Shown: piece by piece, positions 4,011 through 57,327 of the stretch
How positions within the stretch are numbered: position 1 is the stretch's first letter
Layout of the letters: every line of letters starts with the position of its first letter
Source of the DNA: Dethiobacter sp.
GTDB lineage: Bacteria > Bacillota > Dethiobacteria > DTU022 > UBA8154
Assembly: GCA_020725665.1 (NCBI GenBank)
Contig: DYEO01000033.1
Coordinates: 5,398 to 69,397, forward strand
Direction: 5' to 3'
Length of the DNA stretch: 64,000 nucleotides
The notes under the pieces: model-generated
Told to the model about the DNA's origin: nothing
Seen by the model: the letters and a program-made list of their open reading frames with translations, nothing else
Databases searched by the model: none
Program-made: the position numbers and the translations under genes

Positions 4011-5438
4011 TCAATATTTAATATCATGCACCTTTTCCGCCAGGCTTCCCAAATCAACTGCAGGCCTGCTGCATTGGGCCAGGATCAGGGACAAGACGGC
4101 CGGTATGAACAACGCCGCCACAAAGGAAAAAAGCAGGTTGCCCCTGCTGAATCCAGGATCAGGAAAAATCAAAGATCCCGCGGCAATGCCGCTGAGTACG
4201 GAAAAAAAAGCACTTCTTCCGGTTAAACGGGTGGAATAAAGTCCATAAAAGGTGGGAAAAACTGCAGCGGCACATACCAGGTCGGCCAGCAGAAACAGGT
4301 AGAGGACACTGTAACCCTGTGCTGCCACACCAATAACTGTCACACAAATGACTGCTGTGAGGATGCGGGCCCACCTGCGCAGGCGACTGGAGGAGAGAGC
4401 GGGATAAAAACGGGCAATGTCCACGGTAAACACAGCAGCGATGGCATTAATCAGCGTATCGGCACTGCTCATCACCAGCGCCAGTGCCAGTAACAACAGC
4501 ACAAGAAGGACCCAAAATGGCGCCACAGAGAGAACCACTTCAAAAAGGGCCGCAGAAGGAACATCCAGTAAATTGCCGGCTGCCGCCATAAGACCAAATG
4601 TTCCGGCCAGGATTATAACGGGAATAATGGCCAAACCTGCAAAAAGAAACGACTTTTTTACCACGCTCACATCTTTGCCGGCATAAACTCTTGACCAGAA
4701 CCCCTGGTGAAATAAATTAGCAGCCACAATCGCGATGATGAGCGACAGGGTAAAATCCCAGCCTCCCCGGTGTCCCATGCTCAGAAGGGAAGGGTCGATA
4801 TCGCGCAGGGATGACAGCAGTGTTCCCAGGCCGCCGGACCTGAAGCATGCAACAGCAAAGACAATTAGCAGTGCCGGAATGATAATAACAGCCTGTACTG
4901 CATCAGTAAAAATAGAACCGCGTATTCCGCCGTAAGTTGTGTAGATAAGCGTTCCCGATCCGATCAGCAGTGCGGTTATCCACAGGGGTAACCCCATCAC
5001 GATATTCAGGGCCAACGCGATGCCGGTTAACTCGGCACATAAAAAGACCGCCATATAAAAAACTCCCACCACCAGAGTTATGCCATACATGGACCGGCCA
5101 AAGCGGTAATATACGAACTCCACCAGTGAAGATCCGTGAGGGGCAAGATAGCGCATACGCGGACCCAACAGGGCATAAATCATTATCGCCACGGCCTGCG
5201 CCACCGCATATCCCGTGATAGCAGTGATTCCACCCCACGTTCCCGCTTCCGCCGGGGTAAAAAGTATCCATGCCCCCATTATGGAAGCAAAAATTGTGGC
5301 CGTGGCAAGCCAGGTCCCCAGGGTTCCCCTGGCAGTGAGAAAAGCGTCGATAGTGGAATATTGTTGCCGGGTTTGGTAAACATAAAGCATGGCAAGTAAG
5401 GTAAAAACCGTTACTGTTAAAATAAGCAAATAAGTCAC
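4011..5438 (-). CDS. sodium:solute symporter (SSS) family permease, ThiV-like candidate thiamine-precursor transporter
   Basis: Many-TM ORF of SSS type. I place the start at the GTG (rc cac, 5436-5438), preceded by ggaaggag at 7 nt. The track start at 5492 lies inside the riboswitch terminator. This is the first gene after the TPP riboswitch. Confidence 0.7.
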   Translation of the reverse strand: MTYLLILTVTVFTLLAMLYVYQTRQQYSTIDAFLTARGTLGTWLATATIFASIMGAWILFTPAEAGTWGGITAITGYAVAQAVAIMIYALLGPRMRYLAPHGSSLVEFVYYRFGRSMYGITLVVGVFYMAVFLCAELTGIALALNIVMGLPLWITALLIGSGTLIYTTYGGIRGSIFTDAVQAVIIIPALLIVFAVACFRSGGLGTLLSSLRDIDPSLLSMGHRGGWDFTLSLIIAIVAANLFHQGFWSRVYAGKDVSVVKKSFLFAGLAIIPVIILAGTFGLMAAAGNLLDVPSAALFEVVLSVAPFWVLLVLLLLALALVMSSADTLINAIAAVFTVDIARFYPALSSSRLRRWARILTAVICVTVIGVAAQGYSVLYLFLLADLVCAAAVFPTFYGLYSTRLTGRSAFFSVLSGIAAGSLIFPDPGFSRGNLLFSFVAALFIPAVLSLILAQCSRPAVDLGSLAEKVHDIKY

Positions 5439-9791: not shown

Positions 9792-10691
9792 TTATAAAGC
9801 ACGCAGAAACTCGGGTCGCAGTTGACGCATATCCCCGCTGAGACGTACAGACTCCAGTATCTTCAATAGTTTTTCTTTATCCCGGGGAAGGGTTCCCTTC
9901 AGGGGGAGGTAATTGGATGCATGATTACAGCGGAAGACACAATTGCTCATTTCCAGGGGCCGCAGCATCATTTCTATTTCGGCAAGGATTTCCAGGGGAC
10001 CGGGTACGGCAAACTCTCCCTTGGCTACCTTCCTGGCCAGGGGTGTTCCGGGGCAGACCATTAAGGTGAGCAAGCCCAGGTATTCCGGATCAATCCGGTT
10101 TAACAGCGTTGCCGTATCCAAAGCATGTGCAGACATCTTTTCCATGCCACCAAGCCCGTTAATTACGGTAATGGAGAGAACAAGACCCGCCGCTCGGGCA
10201 CGCCGGCCTGCCGTAATAATTTCATCCCGCGTGGCGCCCTTACGTACCCAGGCCAGGAGTTCCTCGTTCCCTGTCTCCACACCCAGGTAGACAATGCCCA
10301 AACCGGCTTTTTTTAGTGCAGACAGCTCTTCTCCACTCTTGTTTAACAGGTCTTGCGGCGTTGCATAGATACCAACACGCTCAAGCGCAGGAAAAGTACT
10401 GTAAAGTTTTTGCAGCACACTTAACAGCTTTTCCGTATGCATGACCATGGCATTGCCGTCTGCCAGAAAAACCCGATCCACTCCCCACAGTAAACGGGCT
10501 GCCTCTTCAATATCCTCTTCAATTTCTGCAAGCTCCCGCTCCCGGAATTTCTTTTCCAGAAAAGAAACGCAAAAGGTGCAACGGTTATGTGAACAACCGA
10601 TCGTAATTTGCAAGATTAGGCTGTTTGCTTCACTGGGAGGGCGATAGATTGCTCCTTCATAACGCATCTCTGAAAACACCATCCTGTTCAT
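9792..10691 (-). CDS. radical SAM protein
   Basis: 299-aa ORF with a CSHNRCTFC (CxxxCxxC) cluster motif near the N-terminus. No SPASM-like Cys-rich C-terminus is present. Confidence 0.8.
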   Translation of the reverse strand: MNRMVFSEMRYEGAIYRPPSEANSLILQITIGCSHNRCTFCVSFLEKKFRERELAEIEEDIEEAARLLWGVDRVFLADGNAMVMHTEKLLSVLQKLYSTFPALERVGIYATPQDLLNKSGEELSALKKAGLGIVYLGVETGNEELLAWVRKGATRDEIITAGRRARAAGLVLSITVINGLGGMEKMSAHALDTATLLNRIDPEYLGLLTLMVCPGTPLARKVAKGEFAVPGPLEILAEIEMMLRPLEMSNCVFRCNHASNYLPLKGTLPRDKEKLLKILESVRLSGDMRQLRPEFLRAL

Positions 10692-10891: not shown

Positions 10892-13254
10892 TCAGTCTAC
10901 CTGTGAAAAAAAAGCGCTGACAATGGGAAAGCTCTCTTTTTGCCTCACGCGATACACGGGTTCTTCCCAGAAATCCCAACTGTAAAATGGTAATGTAAAG
11001 GCAAAACCATCCCCCTTAACGTTACGTGGGAGATAATCAAGGATCAGGCCATCCCATTCCCCGGGGCTTATGCTGTCTTCACCAACAAAATATTGCCCCC
11101 GCTCTTCCGGCAGGTAATAGGAAAGGGCACAGAAGTAGATGCCGGGGGTGGTGGAGGTCTGCAGGGTATCACGCAGAGGTGCATCACTGTATTCCCGCGG
11201 GTCATCCATTACCTGTCGTGTAGAAGGATCCGTAAAATTCAGAAGTGCCCAGGGCAGCCGCAGCTCCACCCTGTTTTTTCCCCCGTTGATATGTAACATG
11301 GCAAGAGAGTTGTAATCCTGACTTTCCGGGTTAAAATTGCCCCGGGGAAGAACGCTTTGATTGCTGTAAACAGGCGGGAAAACCTGCCCGTCCCGGGATA
11401 TGCGCTCCCGGTTGACCAGGGGGCGGATAGCCTCCCATTTTTCATTAGTATCTCCAGCCAATGCAGCCCCCCCGGCAGAGGAAAAACGCAGCTCCCCCCG
11501 GTTGTAGGATGAGGTTGCCAGCAGGTAAGCTTCTTCATCGCCGGAGATAATAATCAAAAATTCCAGCCCATGGGGCACCTTTTCACCTCGCAGCGGCAGG
11601 CGTGGATTCCCCCCACCCGGGTTATAAGTATCCAGGCCAATCATCAATCCGGTGCCGGGTGGCAACAAAGAACCGCTTACTCCGCCGGCTTGGTCGTTTC
11701 CATCTGCAACCAGTTCCAGACCGAGGTAGAGAAATGCTTCATTATGCTCAACAAGCAGGTTTTGCAGTACAACTGCCGGAAATGCTTGCGCCGCCTGTTG
11801 AGGCGCTGCCTGAGCCGGGACAGTTGCCTGCGTGTAAAGAGGTTCCCCCCTGAGAAAGGGTATGCCGGCCGGCTCCATGGCCAGCAGGCCGTAGTTTTGT
11901 TCGGGGCAGAGGGCGTTATGCCAGTAAGGGTTACGCTCGAAAGGCACAATATACGGCTCGGTAATCCACGTTTTCTTTACCCATTCATCGAACAGTTCAA
12001 AGATAACCCCGCCCGCATAACCCTCTTGTAAAACCGCATCCATCATACGCACAATCATTTCTCCCTGCTGTCTTTCTGTTACCCCCCCGTGATCGAAACC
12101 CTGGGGGTGGACGTGAGCCGTGGCCAAGCCGGTGGCCATGCCAAACTCCGCGACGAGCGCCGGGTAAGGGGGGTGCAGGGCCATAAAATCACGCAGGTAT
12201 CCCCCATAGCGAAGAATGCCTTCATGATCATGATAAGCATTGTACGAGGGCTCGTTGTTCATGAAATCGGGGTAATTGGGGTAGATATGATAACAGCCAA
12301 AAAACCCTGCCACATTCAACTCACCCTGCTGCAGGTGATTCGGATTAAGATCTGCCATATCATTATATTCCTTTGATTTTTCACATAGATGTTCCATTCG
12401 GTAGGGTGATCGAGAGGGTCGAGGGTTGGCCAGCTCACAAAAGAAACAGGATGCTGCCAGCCATAGTTTTCTGTACTGTAGGAAAGGGTATAATCACACA
12501 TCATGGCCAGCCATATTTCCGTCGCGCTGGCTCCGGCGACTGCCTGCACAAAGTCACCGTTATAAACCTTGAGGTTGCTGTTGATCTCGTCGTTTTGCAA
12601 AACAACGTGCGGCTCCATTTCATTACCGATCAGCAAGCCCAGCAGGAAAGGGGAAACGTCCACCCCATAGCTGCCAAAAGCCCTGCCGCGCCTGGCACGG
12701 ATTTCTGCATTGCCGTGGAGGGCGTCCACAACATGGCGAATTTCCTGCATGTAATTCTCCATATAATCGGGGTCAAAATAATTGCCACCTGGGATATCCT
12801 CGTCCGGCCAGATCTCCTGCAGCAGCCAGATTCTTTTATGCGGCGCCGCGGAGATATTATATTCCCGAAAAACCTGGTAAAATAACGGGTCCAATAACGT
12901 ATACAGGCGTATTGTATTGGCATTAAGAGCGGCCGCCTGCTCAAGCCAGAGCCGGTAAACATCCCTGTCCATGGGAAACTGGGTAAAATACTTGCCCGGC
13001 AGGGCCGTGCCGATATTCACTCCTTTTACAATGAACGGCATCCAGCCTTCACCTGCAAACACTTCAAAATAACGTCCACTGGTGCGGGCGGTCAGCATGA
13101 CCCCGCCCATTTCGGCAATCTGGGGCAAGAACTCTGGCACTTTGGAAGAACATCCGATAAATAACGCGCCGCCTGCAAGGATAGAGGCAACCAGCAGGAT
13201 AGCAGCAATAATGGTGCTTACAAAGCGTTTTGACTTTGTTTTCGTCGATTTCAT
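10892..13254 (-). pseudogene. clan GH-A-like glycoside hydrolase lipoprotein, split by a 1-nt frameshift (or sequencing error) at a homopolymer
   Basis: The 312-aa (12316-13254) and 501-aa (10892-12397) ORFs overlap in different frames. A lipobox LFIGC follows the signal peptide. The NE acid/base motif (LLIGNEMEP) is in the upstream ORF and the nucleophile-like AEFG is in the downstream ORF. Adding one A to the A5 run (T5 at 12377-12381 on plus) fuses them into about 787 aa. Confidence 0.55.
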
Positions 13255-14144: not shown

Positions 14145-14510
14145 TCACTGGTGCAGAAAAAAAACTCCGGCAAGGATCAGAAAAAAACCAACAATTTTAG
14201 TTGCGGTAACCGCCTCTTTAAAAAAAAGGATGGAGAACAAAAATACAATAATATATGAAATACTTATACTCGGGTATGCTTTACTAAGCTCCATACCCGA
14301 AATTACCTTAATCCACAGGACCATACTCGAAATGAAGAATAAGATACCGGTTAAAACCCATGGATTGCGAAATATATGCATAAGCGTATATGGAATTGCC
14401 GGCCATTCCAGGCTGATCTCTCCCATTTTGAGCGTCGCAAATTTTAATAAAAGCTGTCCGCAAGCCCCCAGGAAAACGGAGATAAATAAGAGTATTAAAC
14501 CGGCTTTCAA
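14145..14510 (-). CDS. small 4-TM DMT/SMR-like protein (ArnE/ArnF-like candidate lipid-linked sugar flippase)
   Basis: 121-aa ORF with four hydrophobic helices and an EamA-like half-domain pattern. Its start overlaps the stop of the GT2 synthase gene by 4 nt. Confidence 0.6.
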   Translation of the reverse strand: MKAGLILLFISVFLGACGQLLLKFATLKMGEISLEWPAIPYTLMHIFRNPWVLTGILFFISSMVLWIKVISGMELSKAYPSISISYIIVFLFSILFFKEAVTATKIVGFFLILAGVFFLHQ

Positions 14511-28353: not shown

Positions 28354-28377
28354 AGATGTCACCTCTCCTGAAAATGC

Positions 28378-28405
28378 GGAAGTTGGAAGTTGGAAGTTGG
28401 AAGTT
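28378..28405 (+). repeat. four perfect tandem heptamers (GGAAGTT)4 followed by agagtgccgg
   Basis: Read directly from the sequence. It lies about 25 nt upstream of the trmK start. On the mRNA strand the units read AACUUCC. Confidence 0.9.
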
Positions 28406-28481
28406 AGAGTGCCGGATAAAACAATTTTAAACGGGATTTGCAGCACATATCCCTGCTTCCGGCATTCCAACATCCGAGTTT

Positions 28482-30272
28482 TTATTCCCGATTACCTGCA
28501 TCTTGATCCGTCCTGCCGGAAACAAGGCCGTATTTATGCATCTTGTTGAGAATGGTCGGGTGAGTGACCCCCAGGGCCCGTGCCACTTTGCGCGTGCTCC
28601 CACACTGCTGCAGGGCACGGCGCAGTAATTTTTTTTCCAGCATCTCCCGCGCCTCCTGCAAGGGAAGGAGATCGTTAATGCGGAGCAGCAGCTTTTCCCC
28701 GGTAGCAACATCTTCTTTTTCCATCAGCTTGGTAACCTCCCGGAAGGAAACAACATCTTCCCGGACTACCACTACAAGTCGTTCGATCAGGTTTTCCAGC
28801 TCCCGCACGTTGCCCGGCCAGGTGTAGGATTCAAGAACATGGTAAGCCTCCGGCTCCAGGCGCCGGTTTTTCTGGTAACGGGAATTGAATTTTTCCAGAA
28901 AATAAATGGCCAGGGGCATGATGTCTTCCCGTCGCTCCCGCAGGGGAGGAACTTCAATGGAGACGACATTGAGCCGGTAAAACAGGTCGGCACGGAACTG
29001 CTGTGCCTCCACCAGTTTCTTTAAGTCCTTGTTAGTGGAGGCAATGATGCGCACATCAATCTTGCGGGGACTGGCATCCCCAATACGGAAAATCTCCTGT
29101 TCCTGGATTACCCGGAGCAGTTTAACCTGCAGTCCCAAGGGCATTTCGCCAATTTCATCCAGAAGGACCGATCCCTTGTTGCAGTACTCAAATATTCCCA
29201 CCTTGCCCCCCCTGCGTGCCCCGGTAAAAGCACCATCCATGTAGCCAAAAAGTTCCGATTCAAGTAGATTTTCCGGGATCGCTCCGCAGTTAATCTTGAT
29301 AAAGGGGCCGTCAGTGCGGAAGCTTGTCTTGTGAATAATCTTGGCAATGATCTCTTTGCCCACACCCGTTTCGCCTGTAATCAAAACGTTTGAGTCAACC
29401 AGGGCTACGCGTTGGGCCAACTCCAGTACCTTGTGCATCTCCGGACTCTGGGCCACAATGTGATCATGAGCCAGTTGGCGGGCGCGCAAATCCTGCAGCT
29501 CGGAACAAAAGCGCTCCTTGAAGCTGCGGTAATCTTCGGCCTGTGCTTTGAGATTGTTCAGTTCCGTCATATCCCTGATATTACAGATAACTTTTAAGAC
29601 ATTGCCGTTTTCGTCAAAGACAGGGTTGCCGGTGATTAACACTTCCTTGCCTGTTTTGATTTTCTGCTTAATCGTCACGGGTTTTTTCTCCTGAAATACC
29701 ATCAGCCCCACCGCAGGATAGACATGCCGCTTCTTCTCCAGTTCACGGATATTTTGACCCACCCCTGAATCCTCAAGAGTTAATCCGCTAATCTGACGAT
29801 AAGCCTTGTTAACCCGCAGCAGTGTACCGTCAGCATCGATGATGCCAATGCCGTCAAATGAGGATTCGATAATGGCCTCCAGTTCCGTGTTTAGATCTTT
29901 TTCCTTCTGCAACTCCCGGCGCAGCGTATAGAGCTCCGATACATCCTGGAAAACCCCCACCGCTCCCACGATCTTGCCCTCACGTATGATGGGTGAACGA
30001 TTGGAGATAACCGTTACATTACCAACTTTCACGATTTTAGCAGATTCGGGACGACCGGTGCGCAGGACATCGGGTAAGCCGGAATTGGGGATGATCTGGG
30101 AAATGGGCAGGCCCAGAATCTCGTCTCTCTTGATCGAGAGGATTTTCTCCGCTGCCTTGTTGATCAGAACTACTTTCCCTTCCCTGTTTACGGTAACAAT
30201 ACCGTTATACGCCGCGTTGACGATCTCCGCCAATTCATCCTGCTGCAACAGGGGCCATTCTTTTACAGTCAC
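28482..30272 (-). CDS. sigma-54-dependent transcriptional activator (PAS-PAS-AAA+-HTH)
   Basis: 596-aa ORF with GETGVGKE Walker A, ESELFGY, GAFTGA, a C-terminal Fis-type HTH and two PAS-like N-terminal modules. Confidence 0.9.
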   Translation of the reverse strand: MTVKEWPLLQQDELAEIVNAAYNGIVTVNREGKVVLINKAAEKILSIKRDEILGLPISQIIPNSGLPDVLRTGRPESAKIVKVGNVTVISNRSPIIREGKIVGAVGVFQDVSELYTLRRELQKEKDLNTELEAIIESSFDGIGIIDADGTLLRVNKAYRQISGLTLEDSGVGQNIRELEKKRHVYPAVGLMVFQEKKPVTIKQKIKTGKEVLITGNPVFDENGNVLKVICNIRDMTELNNLKAQAEDYRSFKERFCSELQDLRARQLAHDHIVAQSPEMHKVLELAQRVALVDSNVLITGETGVGKEIIAKIIHKTSFRTDGPFIKINCGAIPENLLESELFGYMDGAFTGARRGGKVGIFEYCNKGSVLLDEIGEMPLGLQVKLLRVIQEQEIFRIGDASPRKIDVRIIASTNKDLKKLVEAQQFRADLFYRLNVVSIEVPPLRERREDIMPLAIYFLEKFNSRYQKNRRLEPEAYHVLESYTWPGNVRELENLIERLVVVVREDVVSFREVTKLMEKEDVATGEKLLLRINDLLPLQEAREMLEKKLLRRALQQCGSTRKVARALGVTHPTILNKMHKYGLVSGRTDQDAGNRE

Positions 30273-35208: not shown

Positions 35209-35231
35209 GATGTCGGATGTCGGAGTGCCGG
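35209..35231 (+). repeat. (GATGTCG)2 followed by GAGTGCCGG
   Basis: Read directly from the sequence. The same terminal motif (gagtgccgg) follows the GGAAGTT array at 28406-28415. Confidence 0.7.
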
Positions 35232-48286: not shown

Positions 48287-48320
48287 TTTCCTTGCTCCTT
48301 TCACCTTACAATCTCTATTT

Positions 48321-48362
48321 ACTCAGGTATTCAGCATTCAGCATTCAGCATTCAGCATTCAG
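48321..48362 (+). repeat. heptamer tandem array (actcagg, tattcag, then cattcag x4) followed by aatgccccgag
   Basis: Read directly from the sequence. mRNA sense is CTGAATG. It lies in the trmD-rplS spacer. Confidence 0.9.
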
Positions 48363-48448
48363 AATGCCCCGAGATTATGCTTCCAGCAATTAATTAACCT
48401 CTTGCAAAAGAAGTGTTGTATCGGAAATATCCCCCATATCCCGGTTCT

Positions 48449-48490
48449 CTCATTCTGACTCCTGACTCCTGTCTCCTGCCTCCTGCCTTT
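48449..48490 (+). repeat. heptamer tandem array (ctcattc tgactcc tgactcc tgtctcc tgcctcc tgccttt)
   Basis: Read directly from the sequence. mRNA sense is GGAGNCA. It covers the stop codon and roughly the last 12 codons of trmD. Confidence 0.9.
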
Positions 48491-49166
48491 TTTCAAACAG
48501 TTCCGGTCTGTACAGCCGGGTACGCTCCAGGGATTGCCGGTAGCGCCAATGCTTAATCTCTCCATGGTTGCCGGAGAGAAGCACATCCGGCACGAGCATC
48601 CCTCTGAAATTATAGGGGCGTGTGTACTGGGGGTATTCAAGCATACCGTTTGTAAAGGACTCCTCTGCCAAAGAGGAATTACTTAACAAGCCGGGGATCA
48701 GGCGTGTTACGGCATCGACTAAAACCATGGCCGGAATTTCCCCTCCAGTGAGGACGAAATCGCCAATGGAAATCCGCTCCTGCGCCAGGTGGAGCGCTAC
48801 CCGTTCGTCAACACCTTCATAATGGCCACAGAGAATCACCATGTGGTTAAGAGCGCTCAGTTCCTGTGCTTTTCCCTGGTTAAAAATTGCTCCTCCCGGG
48901 GAAAGGAGAATAATTCTTGTTCCCGGATCCTCTTTTTTTACACCCAACGCCTCAACAGCCAGGAAAAAGGGTTCAGCACTCATTACCATGCCTGCTCCGC
49001 CACCGTAAGGGGCGTCATCCACACGGCGGTGTTTATCCGTACTGAAATCACGCAGGTCGATAATCCTGAGTTGCAACAACTCCTTTTCCTGTGCCCTTCT
49101 GAGCATGCTCTCGTCAAAAACACCGCTAAAACTGCCTGGAAAGGCGGAGATAATATCAATTTGCAT
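48450..49166 (-). CDS. trmD: tRNA (guanine37-N1)-methyltransferase
   Basis: 238-aa ORF that is TrmD-like throughout (MQIDIISAFP.., DDAPYGGGAGMVM, GRYEG-type HYEGVDER). The C-terminal tail RQEAGDRSQESE is encoded by the heptamer array. Confidence 0.95.
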   Translation of the reverse strand: MQIDIISAFPGSFSGVFDESMLRRAQEKELLQLRIIDLRDFSTDKHRRVDDAPYGGGAGMVMSAEPFFLAVEALGVKKEDPGTRIILLSPGGAIFNQGKAQELSALNHMVILCGHYEGVDERVALHLAQERISIGDFVLTGGEIPAMVLVDAVTRLIPGLLSNSSLAEESFTNGMLEYPQYTRPYNFRGMLVPDVLLSGNHGEIKHWRYRQSLERTRLYRPELFEKRQEAGDRSQESE

Positions 49167-49243
49167 TTCCTACCACACCCTGTCATTTCCAGCCACCGGA
49201 TAGATAGAGTTTAAATAATCATCCTGACAGGTAAGCTTAAAGG

Positions 49244-49780
49244 CTAATCCACAAGTCCCGGGGGGAGATCCAGCAGCATATAGCCTTCCTGCAGGTTGAT
49301 TTCCTTTACCACGATACGGGTGGCCGGAACGAGTATTTCCCCGCGTGGTTTTTCCCCTGCACTCTCCACAACATAAATATCATTACCCCCGGTTTTAATG
49401 ACCTCCCGTACCACACCCAGTTTCTCACCAGCGACGCTAAGGGCCGTCAGGCCGATGATCTCGTCAAAGTAATAGCTTCCCGCCGGCAGTTGAACCCGCT
49501 GATTTGCTGGAATTTTAAGCAGTGATCCGGTTAGGCGGGCCGCATCTTCCCATGTAGCACAACCTTCCAGATGAATGATCCAGAGGTTTTTATATACCCG
49601 TGCCTCTTTCACATTGTGGTACTCGAGCTGTCCATTTCTCTCCACGATCACTTCACGCAGTTCAGCGCAGCGCTCCGGGAAATCGGAGTAAGGGTAAACC
49701 TTTACGGCCCCCGTAACACCAAACGGGCCAATAAATTTACCAATAGTTGCCAGAGGTTCAGAGAGGGAAGAAGACATCAT
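49244..49780 (-). CDS. rimM: 16S rRNA processing protein RimM
   Basis: 178-aa ORF with RimM N-terminal and PRC barrel pattern, in conserved context. Confidence 0.9.
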   Translation of the reverse strand: MMSSSLSEPLATIGKFIGPFGVTGAVKVYPYSDFPERCAELREVIVERNGQLEYHNVKEARVYKNLWIIHLEGCATWEDAARLTGSLLKIPANQRVQLPAGSYYFDEIIGLTALSVAGEKLGVVREVIKTGGNDIYVVESAGEKPRGEILVPATRIVVKEINLQEGYMLLDLPPGLVD

Positions 49781-49787
49781 GTTCCCC

Positions 49788-50018
49788 TTATTCGATAATC
49801 TCTACCATGACCCGCTTGTTTTCCTTAACAGCAGCCGCGTTAACCACGGTGCGGATAGCCTTGGCGATACGCCCCTGTTTACCGATAACCTTGCCCATAT
49901 CTTCCGGGGCCACGCGCAGTTCCAGGATAATTGAGCGCTCACCTTCCACCTGCTGTACATCCACCTGTTCGGGATAATCAACAAGCGCTCTGGCAATGTA
50001 TTCCACGATTTCTTTCAT
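49788..50018 (-). CDS. KH-domain RNA-binding protein (YlqC/UPF0109)
   Basis: 76-aa ORF carrying ..[21 protein letters not shown].. It lies between rpsP and rimM. Confidence 0.85.
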
Positions 50019-50045
50019 CTGAAACCTACTCCCTTTTTGGTGTTG

Positions 50046-50291
50046 TTAGCCCTGGAGTCCTGCTTTGGTAAATAGGGCCTTTACGGTATCAGTGGGCAAC
50101 GCACCGCGGGAAAGCCATTCGCCGGCCTTCTCAGCATCGATTTTAATCGTTGTCGGTTGAGTAGTCGGGTTATAATAACCTATCTCTTCAATAAACCTTC
50201 CATCACGGGGAGAACGAGAATCAGCAACAACGATACGGTAAAACGGTTTCTTTTTCGCTCCCATTCTTTTCAGACGAATACGTACGGGCAA
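50046..50291 (-). CDS. rpsP: 30S ribosomal protein S16
   Basis: [25 protein letters not shown] is the S16 pattern. The probable TTG start lies 8 nt after aggaggtg. Confidence 0.95.
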
Positions 50292-50332
50292 TGACAGCAC
50301 CTCCTGTGGTTAATAGTTTATTTAATAATAAA

Positions 50333-51676
50333 TTATCTAAAAGGGAAGAATCCCTTTGTTTTCTTCAAGCGGTTTTTATCGAGAGAACTGAACTGCCTGA
50401 GCATTTTTTTCATCTCGCCAAACTGTTTTAACAGCCGGTTCACGTCCTGCACTGTCGTTCCACTCCCGCCGGCAATACGGCGCCTGCGACTGCTGTTAAT
50501 GATCTCCGGCTGCAGCCGCTCCTGCCGGGTCATGGATTTTACGATGGCTTCAGCCTTCACCAACTCTTTTTCGTTAATGGACAGGTTTTTCATTCCCCTG
50601 GCCGCCTTGTTCATGCCGGGAATCATGCCCAGCAGTTCATCAAGGGGACCCATCTGCCTCACCTGTTGCAGCTGTTCCAGGAAATCCTCCAAAGTAAGGG
50701 TCTGGTTGTGCAGTTTCCGCTCGAGGAGGCGGCTTTTTTCCACGTCCACCACCTGTTGCGCTTTTTCAATGAGGGAAAGGACATCACCCATGCCAAGGAT
50801 GCGCGAGGCCATGCGGTCGGGGTGGAAGGGCTCAAAAGCATCCATTTTTTCCCCCAAACCGCTGAATTTAATGGGACAACCGGTAACAGCCCGTACGGAT
50901 AGAGCTGCACCACCCCTGGTATCACCGTCCAATTTGGTGAGGATAACCCCGGTCAGGCCCAACTGCTGGTGAAAAGTTCCGGCCACGTTAACCGCATCCT
51001 GCCCCGTCATGGCATCCACCACCAACAGGATTTCCAGGGGTTTTAGTCCTTCCTTAAGCCGGCCCAGTTCGGCCATTAACTCTGCGTCGATGTGCAGCCG
51101 GCCGGCCGTATCAATTATTACATAATCGTTTTGGTCGTAAGACGCTTTTTTTATGGCCTGCCTGGCAATCTGCAAGGGGTTTTCCCTGCCCATAGCGAAA
51201 ACCGGACTTCCCGTTTCCCGCCCCAGGGTCTCAAGTTGTTGGATCGCCGCCGGACGGTAGATATCAGCAGCCACCAGCAGGGGGTTGTGACCGCCACGGC
51301 GCAAGAGCAAAGCAAGTTTGGCCGCACTGGTAGTCTTCCCTGAGCCCTGCAGCCCTACCAGCATAACAGACTGGGGAGGCGGCGACGGCGGGGCAATTTT
51401 ACTCTGGGTTTCCCCCATGAGCCTGACCAGCTCTTCGTGGACGATCTTGATTACCTGCTGCCCGGGGGTAAGGCTCTTGATTACCTCCGCCCCGATGGCC
51501 CTTTCCTTCACGGCGGCGGTAAAATCTTTGGCTACCCGGTAATTAACATCCGCCTCCAGCAGGGCCATGCGCACTTCACGCAGGGCTGTCTCCACATCTT
51601 TCTCATTTAATTTTCCCTTACGTTTCAGTTTCTGAAACGTATCCTGAAGCTTTTCTGCCAGACCGCTAAATAACAA
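50333..51676 (-). CDS. ffh: signal recognition particle protein Ffh
   Basis: It has N, G (GLQGSGKTT, DTAGR, TKLDGD) and M domains. The start is uncertain. I chose the TTG giving MLFSGLAEKLQ, and the track start at 51712 overlaps the SD-like aaggagg. Confidence 0.93.
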   Translation of the reverse strand: MLFSGLAEKLQDTFQKLKRKGKLNEKDVETALREVRMALLEADVNYRVAKDFTAAVKERAIGAEVIKSLTPGQQVIKIVHEELVRLMGETQSKIAPPSPPPQSVMLVGLQGSGKTTSAAKLALLLRRGGHNPLLVAADIYRPAAIQQLETLGRETGSPVFAMGRENPLQIARQAIKKASYDQNDYVIIDTAGRLHIDAELMAELGRLKEGLKPLEILLVVDAMTGQDAVNVAGTFHQQLGLTGVILTKLDGDTRGGAALSVRAVTGCPIKFSGLGEKMDAFEPFHPDRMASRILGMGDVLSLIEKAQQVVDVEKSRLLERKLHNQTLTLEDFLEQLQQVRQMGPLDELLGMIPGMNKAARGMKNLSINEKELVKAEAIVKSMTRQERLQPEIINSSRRRRIAGGSGTTVQDVNRLLKQFGEMKKMLRQFSSLDKNRLKKTKGFFPFR

Positions 51677-51757
51677 AATAAATCGCCCCCAGTGGGCTAC
51701 CTCCTTTAACAATAACAGTTATACACTATTCCAACCCTAAAGTAAATACCTTGTTCC

Positions 51758-51772
51758 CATTCAGGTATTCAG
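51758..51772 (+). repeat. two heptamer-type units (cattcag, gtattcag) followed by aatgcaag
   Basis: Read directly from the sequence. It belongs to the same family as 48321-48362. Confidence 0.7.
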
Positions 51773-51810
51773 AATGCAAGTCTACGAATGTTTTCGCCTG
51801 TTTTTTATCC

Positions 51811-51873
51811 TTACTTCTGTTTCCTGTCTCTTGTCTCCTGGCTCTTGTTTCCTGGCTCTTGTTTCCTGAATGC
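51811..51873 (+). repeat. heptamer array of 8 units (ttacttc tgtttcc tgtctct tgtctcc tggctct tgtttcc tggctct tgtttcc) followed by tgaatgc
   Basis: Read directly from the sequence. mRNA sense is GGARACA/AGAGMCA. It includes a 14-nt higher-order duplication. Confidence 0.9.
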
Positions 51874-51880
51874 CGACCCC

Positions 51881-52786
51881 TCAGCCGAGGAGTGCCTCGA
51901 CAAAGAGGGAAGGGTCAAAAACCTGCAGATCTTCCTTCTTCTCTCCCATGCCCACGAGTTTTACCGGAATCCCGGTTAGGTCCTTAACGGCAACGACAAT
52001 ACCACCCCGGGCCGTGCCATCCAGTTTCGTCAGCACTATTCCGGAAAGAGGGACAGCCTGTTGAAAATATTTTGCCTGGGCAATGCCGTTTTGTCCGGTT
52101 GTAGCATCAAGGACCAGGAGTGTTTCATGGGGTGCTCCCAGCAGGGCCCGGCCGATAACGCGATAAATTTTCTTGATTTCTTCGATCAGATTGGCCTTGG
52201 TATGCAGCCGGCCGGCCGTGTCGCAGAGGAGCAGGTCCGCTTTGCGTGCCACGGCGGCACTGACCGCATCATAGATCACCGCCGAGGGATCGCCCCCGGC
52301 CTGGTGCTTGATTATCCCCGCCCCCACCCGGTTGGACCACTCCTCCAGTTGCTCAATGGCGGCGGCACGGAACGTATCCCCTGCCGCAATCAGTACATCC
52401 TTACCCATCTCCCGGTAGTGGTAGGCCAGCTTGGCGATACTTGTGGTCTTCCCCACGCCGTTGACACCTAGCACGAGAAAAACCGTTGGAGGAGAGGGGG
52501 CAAGAGCCAGAGAAACATTCTTCTCCCCGTCCATAATGGCGTTAAGCAGTTCCTTTAGCATCTCCCTGGCCCGGAACGCTTCTTTAACTTTGCCATCGTG
52601 CAGACGCTGCTGTAACAATGTGATTATTTTAGTGGATGTCTCCACTCCCACATCGGCGGAGATTAAAACCTCCTCCAGGCTTTCAAAAAAATCATCATTG
52701 ATCTCACTTTTGCTGAATAATTGGTCAAAACGGCCCTGCAGGGCTTCCCTGGTGCGGCGCAAACCTTCTTTAAAAATTTTCAACAT
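51881..52786 (-). CDS. ftsY: signal recognition particle receptor FtsY
   Basis: 301-aa ORF with an NG domain (GVNGVGKTT, DTAGR, TKLDGT). Confidence 0.95.
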   Translation of the reverse strand: MLKIFKEGLRRTREALQGRFDQLFSKSEINDDFFESLEEVLISADVGVETSTKIITLLQQRLHDGKVKEAFRAREMLKELLNAIMDGEKNVSLALAPSPPTVFLVLGVNGVGKTTSIAKLAYHYREMGKDVLIAAGDTFRAAAIEQLEEWSNRVGAGIIKHQAGGDPSAVIYDAVSAAVARKADLLLCDTAGRLHTKANLIEEIKKIYRVIGRALLGAPHETLLVLDATTGQNGIAQAKYFQQAVPLSGIVLTKLDGTARGGIVVAVKDLTGIPVKLVGMGEKKEDLQVFDPSLFVEALLG

Positions 52787-52800
52787 CTACTCTATCACCT

Positions 52801-52898
52801 TGCTTTTCTCCTTCTGCCTCCTGCTTCCTGACTCCTGACTTTTGACTTTCGAATCCCGCCTCCTGCTTCCTGCCTCCTGCTTCCTGCTTCTTGCACTC
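52801..52898 (+). repeat. 14 heptamers in unbroken 7-nt phase filling the smc-ftsY spacer
   Basis: The units are tgctttt ctccttc tgcctcc tgcttcc tgactcc tgacttt tgacttt cgaatcc cgcctcc tgcttcc tgcctcc tgcttcc tgcttct tgcactc. mRNA sense is GGAGGCA/GGAAGCA/GGAGTCA. Confidence 0.95.
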
Positions 52899-55800
52899 AC
52901 CCTGCTTTTTGTTTTAAATCAAGGGAGATAACCTTTGATACTCCCTCTTCCTCCATCGTTATACCATAGAGTACGTCCGCTTCTTCCATTGTCTGGCGGC
53001 GGTGCGTGATTAAAATAAACTGGGTCTCCCGGGCGAAGCTCTTCAGATAACTGATAAAGCGGCCGGCATTGTTATCGTCGAGCGAAGAATCAATCTCATC
53101 GAGGATACAGAAAGGAACAGGCCGGTAATACAACAGGGCAAAAAGAAGGGCGATAGCGGTAAGTGCCTTTTCTCCTCCGGAGAGGAGAGATATGTTCTTT
53201 AAATTTTTACCCGGCGGCTGGGCTGTGATTTCGATCCCCGAATCAAGGACATTTTGGGGATCGGCAAGCCGCAACAAGGCCTGCCCGCCGCCGAACAGTT
53301 GTTGAAAAACATCGTTAAAATGCTTCTCCACGGCAGAGAGGGACGCCAGAAACTGTTCTTTCATATGCCGGTCAAGCTCAGCCAGTACTTTTTTTATCCC
53401 CTTTTCCCCCGCCTGCAAATCCTGATGTTGCGTCTCCAGAAAGGTGATCCTTTCCTGCAGGCGCTCGTATTCATCAATTACCGCAGTATTTACCGTTCCC
53501 AGGGCGGCGATCTCCCCGCCAAGCTGATCCCGCCGGGCTGTCAGCTCTGCCGCAGGCTCATCCCCTGCGGCTTTATCTTGCAGGACGGACATCTCCTTAA
53601 TGGGGTCCAGATCATATTTCTCCCGTAACTGTTCCTCCAGATAACGTTGCGCTTCCTCCAGTTTTACCGATTCGAGCTGCAATTGCTGGCTGCGCCGCGT
53701 ATATTTTTCGCTGTCTTTTTCCACCTTTTCCAGTTCTCCGGAAAGTTCCGTTTTTTCCCGGACCAGGTTATCCACTTCAACTGCAAGGGTGAGAAGCCGG
53801 GCCTTACACCGCTTCAACTCTCCTCTCCCTTCCTCAAGCCGGCCAGCCAGCATTACCTCCTCTGCGGCCAAACGTTCCCATTCTGCCTGCAGCCTTTCCT
53901 TTTCTCCCACCAGTTCCGCCGCCAAACCCTGCAAACCGCTTTTTTCATGTATATGCCGGCGGCGCTGTTCCTGCAGGGAACTTTCTTTCTCCTGGATGGC
54001 GGAAAAACGTACGCGTAGCTCCACAAGTTCGTTTTCTGTGCAGCGGAACACCTCTTCGCTCTGCCTGACCCGCTCCCCCAGTCTGTTCTCTTCCCTTTGC
54101 AGGTTGATTATTTCTTTTTCTATTCGATCCCGTTCTTTTTTTTCCTGGTTTGCCAGTCCGGCCAGGGCGGCTAACTTACCCTGCCATTTCTCCATCTCCT
54201 GCTCCAGCCGCTGCCTTTCGTCGGCAAGCATCTTCAACTCCCTGGCAATATGCTCCCCTTCACCCTGTAGCTTTAGTTTATCCTTGGTCAGCTCTCTTCC
54301 TTCCTGTTCGCCGGCGGCTATTTTTTGATAAATCTGCTCCCGTTCTTTTTTTATCTCCTGCATGGCCAGGCTTGACGCGGTTAAAGCAGCATCCCGGGCA
54401 CTGATCTCCTTCAACAGTTCTTCCAACTCCCGCTTGCGTTGCAAAAATCCTGGATTTTCCCGGGGCTGGTAACCGCCGGAGATAGCCCCCCCGGGGGTAA
54501 TCACCTCGCCATCAAGTGTTACCAGTTTCCAGCCCCCCCGGTTCGAGTGGGCCAGCTTAAGAGCCGTATCCAGGTTGGCGGCTACCAGGACATTGCCCAG
54601 CAGATGGTCAACGGCCTTGCGGAAACGATCCGGCGCCTCCACCAGTTTCGCGGCTATTCCCAGCAAGCCTTCGCCTCCATCAGCGGGCAGATCACGGCGC
54701 TGCGGCGGACGCAACAGGTTCAGGGGAAGAAAGGTTGCTCTTCCGGCCCGCTCCTTTTTCAAATATTCGATGGCACAGCGTGCAGCCGCATCATTATCCG
54801 TAACTATGTATTGCATCGCTCCCCCCAGGGTTACCTCTATCGCTTTTTCAAGGAAAGGAGGGACAGTAATAAGGCCGACCAGGGGTCCATGAATTCCGGA
54901 AAGAGCGGTTTTTCCGCCGCTTACGGCCTGCATTACCGCCCTAACCCCCCCTGCATAATAGCTCAGGTTCTCTTCGCTCTCACGCAGGTACCTGGCCCGG
55001 TTGCGTTTTTTTTCCTGTTCTTTCTCCATCTCCTGGAGCTCCGCCTGTGCTCTTTCCAGCCTGCTCTCCAACTCCTGCCGCATCTTTGCCAGCAGGGATT
55101 GTTCTTTAACCCACTTCTCCTCCTCCCAGCGCAGACGTTCCTGCAAAACGGCATTCTTTTTCTCCTGTTCCAGGATATACTGCCGGTCTGAAAGGACCTT
55201 TTTTATACGCCCGCTTAGTTCTTCCATGGTTTCGTTAATCTCAACGCAACGCGTTTCCTTGTCCTGCAGGGCCTGGTTTAGCGTTACGAGACGGGATGCT
55301 GCCTGTGCAACCTGCCGGCGCAGGCTCTCCAGGGCGGGAAGTTCCTGCTTTGCTTGCAGCAGTTTTAGTTTTTCCTTCAGCGTTGCCGCCCTTTCCCCCT
55401 GCTCCCTTTGTTCCTGTTCCAGTTTTTGCAGTTCAAGCCTGTTTTGTTCCAGCGTCTTATCCAAACCGGAAATTCGCTCCCAAACTTCCTGCATGGCGTT
55501 TTCCTTAAAGCGGCGCTTCTCCAGGGAAAAGTTTTTCTGTTCCCGTACCACGGCCAACTTTCTCTCCAACTGCTGCACATTTTGCTCATGCTCGCGCAAC
55601 AGGGCCTGCTCTGTCTCCACCCTCTCTTTTTTTTCCTGCTCCTGCCGGTTATTGTCGTCGAGTTTGCTTCTCCAGGCTTTACGGTTTTCTTCCTGTTCCC
55701 GGAGCTGCTCATCTATCCTTGCAAGTTCGTCCTGTATTTTCTGCCGGCGTTTATTGTTGTCAACCCATTGTCTTGCCAGAATCTTTTCCTCCACTTCACG

Positions 55801-56466
55801 CAAAAGACTGCGTAAAAAACGGTATCGCTTTGCCAGGGAAACTGCATCTGCAAGGGGCTCCTGCTGATTCTTTAGCTCCAGCAGGAGATCTTCCACACGC
55901 AGCAAATTTTGCGCCGCTTCCTCCAGTTTGCCCAGTGTTTCTTTTTTCCTGCGCCTGTATTTATGGATACGGGCTACTTCCTCAAAAAGCTCCCTGTGCT
56001 CTTCCGGCCTGGCATTGATTAATTGCTCCACCCGGCCCTGGCCGATAAGTGAATATGTTTCCATACCGATACCCGTATCAAGAAAAAGATCCACAATATC
56101 CCTGAGGCGGCACGGGTTCTTATTTATGTAGTATTCCCCCTCCCCCGATCGGTACATCCGCCTGGTAATCACAACTTCATCATAATCAAGGGGTAAAAAA
56201 CCACCGACTCCCGCCAGACTGAGCGAGACCTCTGCGTAGTTCATGGCACGCCGTTTTGCTGTTCCGGAAAAAATCAGCTCATCCATCTGTGCGCCCCGCA
56301 ACAGGCGCGCGCTTTGTGATCCCAGCACCCAGCGCACGGCGTCGAGCAGGTTGCTTTTCCCGCAGCCATTGGGCCCCACAGCCGCAGTAATCCCGGGAGA
56401 AAAGGTAAATTCCACTTTCTCCGGGAAAGATTTAAAACCGGTTATCTCCAGCTTCTTTAAATACAT
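52897..56466 (-). CDS. smc: chromosome segregation protein SMC
   Basis: 1189-aa ORF with N-terminal Walker A GPNGCGKSN, long coiled coils, a hinge, and C-terminal LSGGEK and Walker B ILDEID. Confidence 0.95.
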   Translation of the reverse strand: MYLKKLEITGFKSFPEKVEFTFSPGITAAVGPNGCGKSNLLDAVRWVLGSQSARLLRGAQMDELIFSGTAKRRAMNYAEVSLSLAGVGGFLPLDYDEVVITRRMYRSGEGEYYINKNPCRLRDIVDLFLDTGIGMETYSLIGQGRVEQLINARPEEHRELFEEVARIHKYRRRKKETLGKLEEAAQNLLRVEDLLLELKNQQEPLADAVSLAKRYRFLRSLLREVEEKILARQWVDNNKRRQKIQDELARIDEQLREQEENRKAWRSKLDDNNRQEQEKKERVETEQALLREHEQNVQQLERKLAVVREQKNFSLEKRRFKENAMQEVWERISGLDKTLEQNRLELQKLEQEQREQGERAATLKEKLKLLQAKQELPALESLRRQVAQAASRLVTLNQALQDKETRCVEINETMEELSGRIKKVLSDRQYILEQEKKNAVLQERLRWEEEKWVKEQSLLAKMRQELESRLERAQAELQEMEKEQEKKRNRARYLRESEENLSYYAGGVRAVMQAVSGGKTALSGIHGPLVGLITVPPFLEKAIEVTLGGAMQYIVTDNDAAARCAIEYLKKERAGRATFLPLNLLRPPQRRDLPADGGEGLLGIAAKLVEAPDRFRKAVDHLLGNVLVAANLDTALKLAHSNRGGWKLVTLDGEVITPGGAISGGYQPRENPGFLQRKRELEELLKEISARDAALTASSLAMQEIKKEREQIYQKIAAGEQEGRELTKDKLKLQGEGEHIARELKMLADERQRLEQEMEKWQGKLAALAGLANQEKKERDRIEKEIINLQREENRLGERVRQSEEVFRCTENELVELRVRFSAIQEKESSLQEQRRRHIHEKSGLQGLAAELVGEKERLQAEWERLAAEEVMLAGRLEEGRGELKRCKARLLTLAVEVDNLVREKTELSGELEKVEKDSEKYTRRSQQLQLESVKLEEAQRYLEEQLREKYDLDPIKEMSVLQDKAAGDEPAAELTARRDQLGGEIAALGTVNTAVIDEYERLQERITFLETQHQDLQAGEKGIKKVLAELDRHMKEQFLASLSAVEKHFNDVFQQLFGGGQALLRLADPQNVLDSGIEITAQPPGKNLKNISLLSGGEKALTAIALLFALLYYRPVPFCILDEIDSSLDDNNAGRFISYLKSFARETQFILITHRRQTMEEADVLYGITMEEEGVSKVISLDLKQKAG

Positions 56467-56496
56467 AGGGATAAGACCACCACTTATTTTATCATT

Positions 56497-56538
56497 TATT
56501 CAGAACTGCGTGTTCAGAATTCAGACTTCAGGATGTTG
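56497..56538 (+). repeat. heptamer array (tattcag aactgcg tgttcag aattcag acttcag gatgttg)
   Basis: Read directly from the sequence, in the rnc-smc spacer. mRNA sense is CTGAANN. Confidence 0.8.
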
Positions 56539-56580
56539 GTTTCTCGCTACCCTGCTGCCCAAGTTACAGAGCTCTAACTC

Positions 56581-57327
56581 TTACTCTGGCGGGTCTGTCT
56601 CCCGCTGAACGCCCCAGCCTTTGGCTGGGCATACATCAACTATCAACTGTTCCCAGGCTGCTTTTGCCGCCGCTTGCTCCGCTTCTTTTTTTGTCTTGCC
56701 CGTTCCCAGTCCGATAATCATATCATCAAGCTCTGCCGCCGCTTCAAAGGTCTTATCATGTTGCGGCCCCACTTCTTTGATAATGGAGTATACAGGTGTC
56801 TTACCCGTAAGAGACTGGCATTTTTCCTGAAGCATCGTTTTAAAGTCGGCCAGCGGGAAAAGACCTTTTTCCAGCGCTTCCAGCATAGGCTCAAAAAGGG
56901 CGATCACCCGGGTGCCGGTCTGCACGTATCCCGTATCCAGAAAAAGAGCGCCAATCAGCGCCTCCAGGGCATCAGCCAGCAACGAGGCTTTCTCAGCGCC
57001 TCCACTGGTGCTCTCTCCTTTTCCCAGTTTTATGTACTCCCCCAGGTTTAACTGTCGGGCCAGTCCCGCCAGGGATTTTTCATTAACAATGCTGTGCCGC
57101 ATCTGTGTTAATTTGCCTTCAGGGTAGCCCGGATAGGATTTAAATAAATATTCTGATATCACCAATTCCAGGACAGCATCTCCGAGAAATTCCAGGCGTT
57201 CGTTGTGCCTGCGGTTTCCCGCTTCGTGGGCAAAGGAGGTATGAGTAAGCGCCTCTTCATATATTACCATATTATGTATTGGCCAAGCCAGTTCCCGCAG
57301 CAACTCCCCCGTTTTCTTATCCGGCAC
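56581..57327 (-). CDS. rnc: ribonuclease III
   Basis: It carries ALTHTSFAHE...NERLEFLGDAVL and a C-terminal dsRBD. I place the start at the GTG after ggaggg. The longer track ORF would overlap fabF. Confidence 0.9.
   Translation of the reverse strand: MPDKKTGELLRELAWPIHNMVIYEEALTHTSFAHEAGNRRHNERLEFLGDAVLELVISEYLFKSYPGYPEGKLTQMRHSIVNEKSLAGLARQLNLGEYIKLGKGESTSGGAEKASLLADALEALIGALFLDTGYVQTGTRVIALFEPMLEALEKGLFPLADFKTMLQEKCQSLTGKTPVYSIIKEVGPQHDKTFEAAAELDDMIIGLGTGKTKKEAEQAAAKAAWEQLIVDVCPAKGWGVQRETDPPE

Follow-up and report, generated by a model that had tools for sequence, protein, structure and literature searches.

The 64,000-nucleotide stretch of Dethiobacter sp. DNA analyzed here (contig DYEO01000033.1; the whole stretch is called the window below) carries rnc, smc, ftsY, ffh, rpsP, a KH-domain gene, rimM, trmD, rplS, and lepB. 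NCBIfam supplied these names, and every gene of the block lies on the minus strand; four spacers of this block contain tandem heptanucleotides. The names agree with the rnc-smc-ftsY-ffh...trmD-rplS block given in a preliminary description of the locus; for FtsY, the best non-self relatives were Bacillota proteins, and the named protein matches at 58 to 70% identity were from Dethiobacter or Dethiobacteria. That description had recognized two families of heptamer arrays, A (GGARNCA in mRNA sense) and B (CTGAAKN), in these spacers, with further arrays elsewhere. We detected arrays with Tandem Repeats Finder (TRF) and an independent period scan, and copy counts for the host genome refer to the 64-kb window. 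Eight period-7 runs (239 nt) were observed, versus 0.23 ± 0.47 in simulations with the same dinucleotide content. Both methods placed all arrays of the rnc-smc...rplS spacers in mRNA sense, i.e., on the minus strand, to which the coordinates of this block refer throughout. The trmD-rplS spacer holds five A units (AAAGGCA GGAGGCA GGAGACA GGAGTCA GGAGTCA; 48456-48490) and four B units, CTGAATG, plus CTGAATA (48328-48362); the ftsY-ffh spacer holds repeats of a 14-nt higher-order unit, GGAAACA AAGAGCC (51811-51868); the smc-ftsY spacer holds ~12 units of the GGARGCA or GGAGTCA type (52813-52896); and the rnc-smc spacer holds CTGAAGT CTGAATT CTGAACA (56511-56531). TRF also revealed adjacent identical units in runs and 14-nt higher-order periods in the window arrays. 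Most of the previously listed sites were thereby borne out, including four AACTTCC units at 28378-28405. Two were not: 51758-51772 consists of two partial units 8 nt apart and is the 3' terminus, in contracted form (CTGAATACCTGAATGGGAAC), of the element described below, and 35209-35224 has only 2.3 copies and may be due to chance.

The two arrays of the trmD-rplS spacer are the arms of a single element, of which positions 48320..48493 form a full long-form copy. An nhmmer profile built from 12 copies matched this segment with an E value of 3.2e-40, along with further copies, and the segment is collinear with copies from other assemblies. One of these, in the gpmI-eno spacer of another Bacillota metagenome-assembled genome (MAG; locus L091), is collinear with the whole window spacer, the shared order being an A array; GAATGAGAGAA; GATATTTyCG..ACAACACTTCTTTTG..AGAGGTTAAT..AATTG.GGAAG.AT.ATC..GGGCATTCTGAAT; B units; and CTGAATACCT. 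Because of this collinearity, the 93 nt between the arrays, earlier taken for unique sequence, are a conserved core, GATATTTCCGATACAACACTTCTTTTGCAAGAGGTTAAT..ATTGCTGGAAGCATAATCTCGGGGCATT (48363..48445), also located by fuzzy matches to the family consensus and by alignments. The core is preceded by the family-conserved inner 5' junction GAATGAGAGA (48446..48455), in which GTCAGAATGAG is conserved across all copies (a GAATG junction is also found 3' of arrays in other phyla), and is followed by the 3' arm and the terminus CCTGAGTA (48320..48362; TRF, period scan, and 10-sequence alignment). The arms of this copy have diverged yet still pair, and a long hairpin is predicted for the copy (-55.6 kcal/mol; z, -3.5).

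The 3' end of trmD lies inside this element. The last 13 codons of the open reading frame (ORF) and the stop codon (48450-48490) fall within the A array, the stop codon TGA (48450-48452) falls within the inner junction, and the C-terminal tail of the protein, KRQEAGDRSQESE, is encoded by the 5' arm and is not conserved in relatives. Insertion of the element replaced the original end of trmD, with the stop codon now in the GAATGAG junction. The arrays had been thought to be strictly confined to spacers, and the position of the trmD 3' end contradicts this; moreover, the smc stop codon abuts an array, and the rnc ORF enters inserted sequence. As a separate observation, the conserved junction (48446-48462) and its counterparts in family copies contain AGGAGTCAGAATG, a Shine-Dalgarno (SD)-like motif 5 nt before an AUG that opens a mini-ORF of 14 to 34 codons, whose frame and length vary between element forms; in the window, the trmD stop codon overlaps this AUG (AUGA).

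The other three spacers carry a short-form copy, a solo 5' half, and a 3'-arm-like remnant; together with the long-form copy, these lie within an 8.2-kb part of the window, all in mRNA sense. The short-form copy occupies the ftsY-ffh spacer (51753..51873) and is identified by a match to the 3' terminus with two mismatches and by collinear local alignments to the copies L140, L149, and L168b. Its 5' arm is expanded and diverged (51811-51868), its core is short (CAGGCGAAAACATTC), and its contracted 3' arm ends in a terminus (51753-51772) that differs from the consensus at two positions. The 38 nt earlier described as a second unique spacer align collinearly with the short-form core CAGCGAAAACATTC and, like the 93 nt of the trmD-rplS spacer, are conserved in other genomes; the bipartite layout that the two spacers were said to share was borne out. 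The hairpin of the short-form copy is weak (z, -1.6). The solo 5' half lies in the smc-ftsY spacer (52796..52896), where an expanded arm of ~12 A-type units (52813-52896) is followed by the junction-like AGAAGGAGAAAAGCAAGG (versus AGAATGAGAAAACCAGCG in the family) and ends just 5' of the ftsY ribosome-binding site; it lacks both a 3' arm and secondary structure (z, -0.3). The remnant in the rnc-smc spacer (56497..56531; CTGAAGT CTGAATT CTGAACA ...CTGAATA) was identified by TRF, period scan, and BLAST, and its matches to family 3' arms were weak (the best was 20 nt at 95% identity; E values, 0.06 to 0.8).

Canonical copies in other genomes make the anatomy of the element clear. They begin with GTAACTACTCAGG and end with CCTGAATAGTAAC. 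The 5' end consists of GTAACTACTCAG, a run of GAGTCAG, TAGTCAG, or AAGTCAG units, and AATGAG; the core is modular, its short form being ..AAAACCAGCGAAAACATT.. and its long form ..GGTGATATTTACGAAACAAAACTTCTCTTGCAAGAGGTTGGTAAATTGCTGGAAGCATATTCTCGGG; and the 3' end consists of GCATTC, a run of TGAMTNC units (e.g., TGAATTC TGACTCC TGAATTC TGAATAC), and CTGAATAGTAAC. The terminal sequences are inverted repeats, as in transposable elements of the miniature inverted-repeat kind (MITEs): GTAACTACTCAGG... pairs with ...CCTGA(A/G)TAGT(A/T)AC, and in L096 (an Armatimonadota MAG) and the truncated copy L168a the 3' terminus complements the 5' terminus exactly. Complementarity is also exact between the inner junctions TCAGAATG and CATTCTGA, CTGACTC complements GAGTCAG, and a hand count from the consensus arms gave ~80% complementarity. 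Canonical copies fold as long hairpins, their arms paired with one mismatch per heptamer (L188a, -59.4 kcal/mol and z of -5.75; L140, z of -3.7). Copies measure 114 to 246 bp, within the MITE range (under ~500 bp), with ~2 to 12 heptamers per arm; they are noncoding, the mini-ORF from the conserved AUG varying in frame and length, and an alignment of 10 sequences showed conserved blocks along the whole element. Families A and B are thus better described as imperfectly complementary arms of one dispersed palindromic element than as independent classes of array. A direct complementarity of A and B units within the window was considered and rejected, as pairing there is partial and complementarity is clear only in canonical copies.

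Upstream of short-form copies (L140, 230-290; L188, 3470-3535; L168, 210-300; L149; metagenome Ga0048257), a second conserved repeat of ~70 nt (..GGCACTGCGTTATCACCGCTCACTCCAGTGCTCCGCGCAGAAGG) was often seen, which suggests a larger composite repeat. L168 also contains a pan motif RNA (RF01749, 51.9 bits; 30-126) upstream of pantothenate-related ORFs, with a truncated antisense copy of the element between the terminator of that RNA and the first gene. Neither in the window nor in 11 copy-bearing loci did an Rfam covariance model match the element, and no L19 leader was found by Rfam upstream of rplS.

Two scans addressed the distribution of the family. A search for four GGARNCA units in one representative genome per species returned at least 120 loci; among the matches listed, about half are cyanobacterial, and the others are from Acidobacteriota, Verrucomicrobiota, Planctomycetota, Bacteroidota, Chloroflexota, and a few Bacillota; the window's own species was not among them. 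The second scan, of metagenomes, used the pattern GCATTCTGAAT-N(0-30)-CTGAATACCT and returned 98 loci, of which ~20 are clear family members, many from one JGI metagenome, and 48 were discarded as unrelated conserved sequence. Copies are dispersed at nonorthologous sites, at least nine of them on contigs of JGI metagenome Ga0048257 and others elsewhere, so that the element is multicopy in the manner of a MITE. The following observations hold among the matches listed. The same termini occur in the Armatimonadota MAG (L096) and, in a 5' half only, in a deltaproteobacterial MAG (L117). Dolichospermum (L040), Blastocatellia (L045 and L099), other Acidobacteriota (L054 and L118), and Lentisphaeria (L116) share the architecture (GGAGNCA)n-GAATG-core-CATTC-(TGNCTCC)n; in L099, the variable position covaries between the arms, GGAGCCA occurring with TGGCTCC. 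An inverted partner array lies within 400 nt downstream of 11 to 14 of the 98 A arrays with enough flanking sequence and upstream of 1 or 2 of them. Nostocales loci and plasmids are rich in GGAGTCA-type arrays, and GGAGNCA-type arrays occur in the further Bacillota MAGs L019, L107, and L114. Judged by sequence, homologous or similarly built elements are thus present in Bacillota, Armatimonadota, a deltaproteobacterium, Cyanobacteria, Acidobacteriota, and Lentisphaerota. L016 has a (GAATGCN)6 array directly 3' of its A array, and GAATGCT is CTGAATG in another phase; the junction motif itself can therefore expand into the B unit of the window.

Some Bacillota arrays are long. L107 (a Syntrophomonadaceae MAG) has 46 perfect GGAGTCA units (1998-2319) and L114 (a Clostridiales MAG) has 10 GGAAGCA units (4269-4338), each in a long stop-free frame; the array unit contains no stop codon in any frame of that strand, and long arrays therefore resemble ORFs.

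Some canonical copies carry the marks of insertion. Perfect target-site duplications flank L178b (ATTATAAC, 8 of 8 positions) and L188a (AAAAATTTT, 9 of 9), and near-perfect ones (7 of 8) flank L168b (ATCCCTTT/ATCCTTTT) and L143 (AGAGGTGG/AGAGGTGT); by our estimate, a near-perfect 8-mer duplication has a chance probability of ~4e-4. Because canonical copies have defined termini and, in some cases, 8- to 9-bp duplications, we infer that the arrays arrived by insertion and were then changed by slippage. That slippage happens follows from L175 and L220, orthologous copies of related populations that share 97% identity and whose 5' arms are exactly one 7-nt unit apart.

The orthologous loci of relatives tell of rapid turnover. 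A period-7 search of related loci, proposed earlier as a check, found heptamers and traces at some orthologous spacers but not the arrays of the window. The three relatives with 83 to 86% FtsY identity all lack those arrays: for the smc-ftsY array, L001 keeps a decayed purine-rich orthologue, and in the ftsY-ffh spacer L004 shows four CAACTGT units and L006 shows CTGGATG CTGACTC CTGTTCA. One further close relative (L229/L230, 81% FtsY identity) and the more distant L225 and L228 (68 to 70%) showed no period-7 runs and no element matches in the operon. The trmD-rplS copy is absent from L001, L004, L006, L225, and L229, where the spacers measure 35 to 120 nt. As relatives lack the window's arrays and retain only traces, the arrays are fast-evolving and lineage specific. 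L004 also carries three copies of another small palindrome, GGGAACGGTC(TT)GACCGTTCC, in its smc-ftsY and trmD-rplS spacers (9900-10000 and 14190-14300), so that the same spacers have been colonized by different repeats in different lineages. Taken together, the duplications, the absence from relatives, the L175/L220 difference, and the range of unit numbers support, at the level of sequence comparison, a history of insertion followed by slippage.

We therefore interpret the window arrays as arms of copies or remnants of a small, noncoding, palindromic, MITE-like mobile element of ~115 to 250 bp, a reading to which we give a probability of about 0.78. In size, inverted repeats, and copy number the family is MITE-like; duplications accompany part of the copies, and a parent element has for now not been found. 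A transposase acting in trans would move the element by staggered cuts of 8 to 9 bp, and replication slippage after insertion would expand, contract, and diversify the arms, yielding the long, diverged arrays of the host genome. The element would be cotranscribed with the operon and form a long imperfect hairpin in the mRNA. Effects on the host may be incidental, such as the supply of the TrmD tail and stop codon, and the element might also create an RNase III site, a block to exonucleases, or SD-like GGAG tracts.

Several observations weigh against this interpretation. Duplications were found for 4 of ~9 copies with both termini, and none is recognizable in L096, L175, L180, L219, or the window copies, whose 5' termini are diverged or missing. 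No pair of termini 0.7 to 4 kb apart, as expected of an autonomous element, was present in any locus examined, nor was a transposase with these termini; viral contigs gave no match, and plasmid matches covered arrays only. Relative to flanking ORFs, ~17 copies are in sense orientation and 3 to 5 are antisense, a bias that hints at selection or a strand-specific mechanism and would be unexpected for a purely selfish DNA transposon. Finally, ~80% of GGAGNCA arrays in other genomes (among the matches listed) have no recognizable partner arm. As most arrays are solo, free-standing slippage arrays also exist, and some window arrays, such as that of the smc-ftsY spacer, could be mostly the product of expansion in place.

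The solo arrays lead to the question of whether a mobile element is needed at all. If the arrays were free-standing repeats resembling the short tandemly repeated repetitive (STRR) sequences of cyanobacteria, each spacer's arrays would have grown in place by polymerase slippage. The lack of a 3' arm and of structure in the smc-ftsY array, the different heptamers in the ftsY-ffh spacers of relatives (e.g., the four CAACTGT units of L004), and the one-unit difference between L175 and L220 all fit such growth, as do the prevalence of arrays without a partner arm (among the matches listed) and reports that, in many bacterial genomes, no long simple repeats are commoner than heptamers (Mrazek 2007, via PMC4679880; PMC4692102). 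Slippage leaves three things unexplained: that a nonrepetitive core and termini are conserved at unrelated loci of other genomes, that the two arms are complementary, and that target-site duplications occur. For 48320-48493 and 51753-51873, we consider slippage alone to be refuted by homology to dispersed copies, and for the locus as a whole we regard it as improbable. An assembly artifact is scarcely credible: the window is from the assembly of an uncultured organism, but typical reads are longer than the arrays, the genes on either side are intact, and the same arms recur in homologous elements of many independent assemblies, for which different assemblers were used.

Selection for function in the transcript is compatible with a mobile origin and was weighed separately. 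As a cis-acting RNA element, the sequence could serve RNase III processing, block 3' exonucleases, or tune translation through SD-like GGAG units and anti-SD-like CUCC in the 3' arm. All four window copies, and ~17 of ~21 overall, are in sense orientation; copies lie exactly between a stop codon and the next ribosome-binding site, also in ribosomal protein operons (L193, rplW-rplB; L175b); the trmD-rplS copy has a far more stable predicted fold in the sense than in the antisense RNA (-55.6 versus -31.9 kcal/mol); and Correia and enterobacterial repetitive intergenic consensus (ERIC) elements affect mRNA via RNase III or RNase E (PMC10969869). Against this stand the absence of covariation at all 14 base pairs of the hairpin in the 10-sequence alignment, so that support at the level of RNA structure is lacking; the failure of the elements to persist in orthologous spacers of relatives (68 to 86% FtsY identity), where traces are decaying; the scant or absent structure of the short-form and solo copies in the window; and the confounding of transcription orientation with replication orientation. 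The strand asymmetry of folding was rejected as general evidence for RNA-level selection, as it is inconsistent across 17 copies. The sense bias might thus reflect selection or a replication-linked strand bias; an RNA-level role is possible, and a selected cis-acting element strikes us as unlikely. Still less likely, and indeed very doubtful, are arrays of binding sites for an RNA-binding protein (of CsrA, S1, or KH type, acting on GGA units) or for a DNA-binding protein using phased sites. A units carry GGA or GGAG every 7 nt, but the unit varies between window arrays (GGAGNCA and GGAAACA/AAGAGCC) and between relatives, and 7 nt is less than the spacing reported for CsrA dimers. A precedent is MacGregor's proposal that S1, Csp, or CsrA binds TAACTGA repeats 5' of start codons (PMC4679880).

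A scan called no promoter- or terminator-like sites on the gene strand within the spacers, and no internal sigma-70 promoter passed the scan in the core. As the only promoter-like site is upstream of ffh, the elements are probably cotranscribed with the operon. That site (TTTACT-17-TATAAC, just 3' of the ftsY-ffh copy) was recognized by eye and was not called by the scan. It belongs to an arrangement found in the window (51667-51760) and in L001, L004, L006, L225, and L228, consisting of the promoter-like site, an AAGGAGG ribosome-binding site, a hairpin, and a likely TTG start codon ~24 nt downstream. The stems of this ffh leader differ between relatives with pairing kept (GCCCAC..GGGGC, GCCCGTCCGCGGGC, and CCCCGG..CCGGG), which suggests a conserved structure between the ffh ribosome-binding site and start codon. 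In L225, ylxM (UPF0122) lies between ftsY and ffh (10952-11293); the window (51713-51880) and its close relatives lack ylxM and keep only the conserved promoter-like sequence.

The rnc-smc spacer holds a second feature. A 100-nt match to Rfam RF02003 (group-II-D1D4-4), resembling domain I of group II introns, lies at 56508..56607, overlapping the 3'-arm-like remnant and the 3' end of the rnc ORF. It scored 44.3 bits, below the gathering score of 49 (E value of 2e-7 over 9 kb), with 41 model positions deleted, and no match to intron domain V/VI was found anywhere in the window, so that a complete set of domains I to VI is not present. The segment looks like the relic of an intron insertion, and at most a relic. 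An 8-bp hairpin, GCCCAGCC-AAA-GGCTGGGC, precedes the match (region 56508-56640). The rnc ORF extends 14 to 18 codons past the conserved protein end into the inserted sequence, an extension absent in relatives, and neither the remnant, the intron-like fragment, nor the hairpin was found in the relatives' rnc-smc spacers. Elsewhere in the window, on the plus strand, a separate and unrelated hairpin (28366..28482; TRF and fold) has a 5' arm of (GGAAGTT)4 and a 3' arm, CTGCTTCC GGCATTCC AACATCC, that is its degenerate complement. Its neighbors are a sigma-54 activator gene and trmK, and it is antisense to both; it folds better on this antisense strand than on the other (plus, -42.9 kcal/mol and z of -5.4; minus, -33.9 kcal/mol and z of -3.5).

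Heptamer repeats have been known in cyanobacteria since 1990, and STRR units have sequences other than GGAGNCA or CTGAATN. The likeness to STRR drawn in the preliminary description holds for unit length, a mostly intergenic position, and variable copy number; what a view of plain arrays missed were the paired arms, the core, and the termini. STRR sequences are described as plain arrays of other units, whereas here inverted arms pair around a conserved core, with termini and target-site duplications; the window units are GGAGNCA and CTGAATN, and the host is an uncultured member of the Bacillota related to Dethiobacteria and not a heterocystous cyanobacterium. Heptamer families on record in PMC4692102 include STRR, with three heptanucleotides in Calothrix PCC 7601, GGGAATC in Xanthomonas, and GGGGAYT in Nostoc. 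PMC4679880 summarizes heptamers as the most frequent of the long simple repeats in many bacterial phyla (Mrazek 2007); the suggestion that no equivalent exists outside cyanobacteria was therefore too strong, and the GGAGNCA-type arrays of other Bacillota MAGs also contradict it. The same paper describes intergenic TAACTGA heptamers in Beggiatoaceae, Cyanobacteria, and Bacteroidetes (MacGregor 2015, PMC4679880). Like the arrays described here, these are direct repeats just 5' of start codons, including those of ribosomal protein operons, with a patchy cross-phylum distribution suggesting horizontal spread; they differ in unit, and the paper's abstract and introduction mention no paired inverted arm, core, or duplication. 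The parts of the heptamer-repeat literature consulted likewise describe no paired inverted arms, core, or target-site duplications, and none of the papers searched contains GGAGTCA in tandem, or a rotation of it, in a pertinent setting. The earlier view of STRR-style heptamer repeats was thus partly right; it overlooked that they are arms of a dispersed, probably mobile palindromic element.

Among palindromic repeats, close parallels are the Correia elements of Neisseria, whose transcripts RNase III cleaves at their terminal inverted repeats (PMC10969869), and the ERIC elements, or intergenic repeat units, of enterobacteria. All are small and noncoding, with terminal inverted repeats, intergenic insertion, cotranscription (here predicted), long hairpins, target-site duplications (here at some copies), and internally deleted forms. 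The family described here differs in that its inverted repeats consist of tandem heptamers in variable number, in having no known parent insertion sequence, and in its presence in several phyla. Repetitive extragenic palindromic (REP) sequences and REPINs, mobilized by REP-associated tyrosine transposases (RAYTs), are similarly palindromic, extragenic, and of high copy number, and REPs are not known to have target-site duplications. They measure 20 to 40 bp and have a GTAG or CGTC head (PMC3733652). Our element, at 114 to 246 bp, with a GTAAC start and 8- to 9-bp duplications, falls outside that description. Pneumococcal BOX, with a boxB module of ~45 nt, and a Porphyromonas gingivalis MITE are likewise dispersed elements with a tandem module of variable copy number, but there the repeat module is internal, whereas here the 7-nt repeats are the arms themselves. 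The P. gingivalis module is a minisatellite (PMC4596501). A review of prokaryotic MITEs from 2024 makes no mention of tandem or heptamer arms (PMC10969869).

The origin and role of heptamer arrays have so far been unexplained, and for the class made of GGAGNCA and its complement we propose that they are arms of a mobile palindromic element present in several phyla. Insertion followed by slippage would be a concrete, testable origin for such arrays. More tentatively, a single widespread family of mobile hairpins, with ends (GGAGNCA)n...(TGNCTCC)n and a GAATG/CATTC junction, might seed many STRR-type arrays across phyla; solo arrays would then be decayed or expanded arms, and the sense bias would reflect a real effect on polycistronic mRNA through RNase III processing or translational coupling. 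For annotation, such elements matter in that they alter gene ends, here the TrmD tail and stop codon. They also bring long hairpins and SD-like tracts into essential operons, which could affect mRNA processing. If a transposase is found, ends built of heptamers would be an unusual substrate for studies of end recognition.

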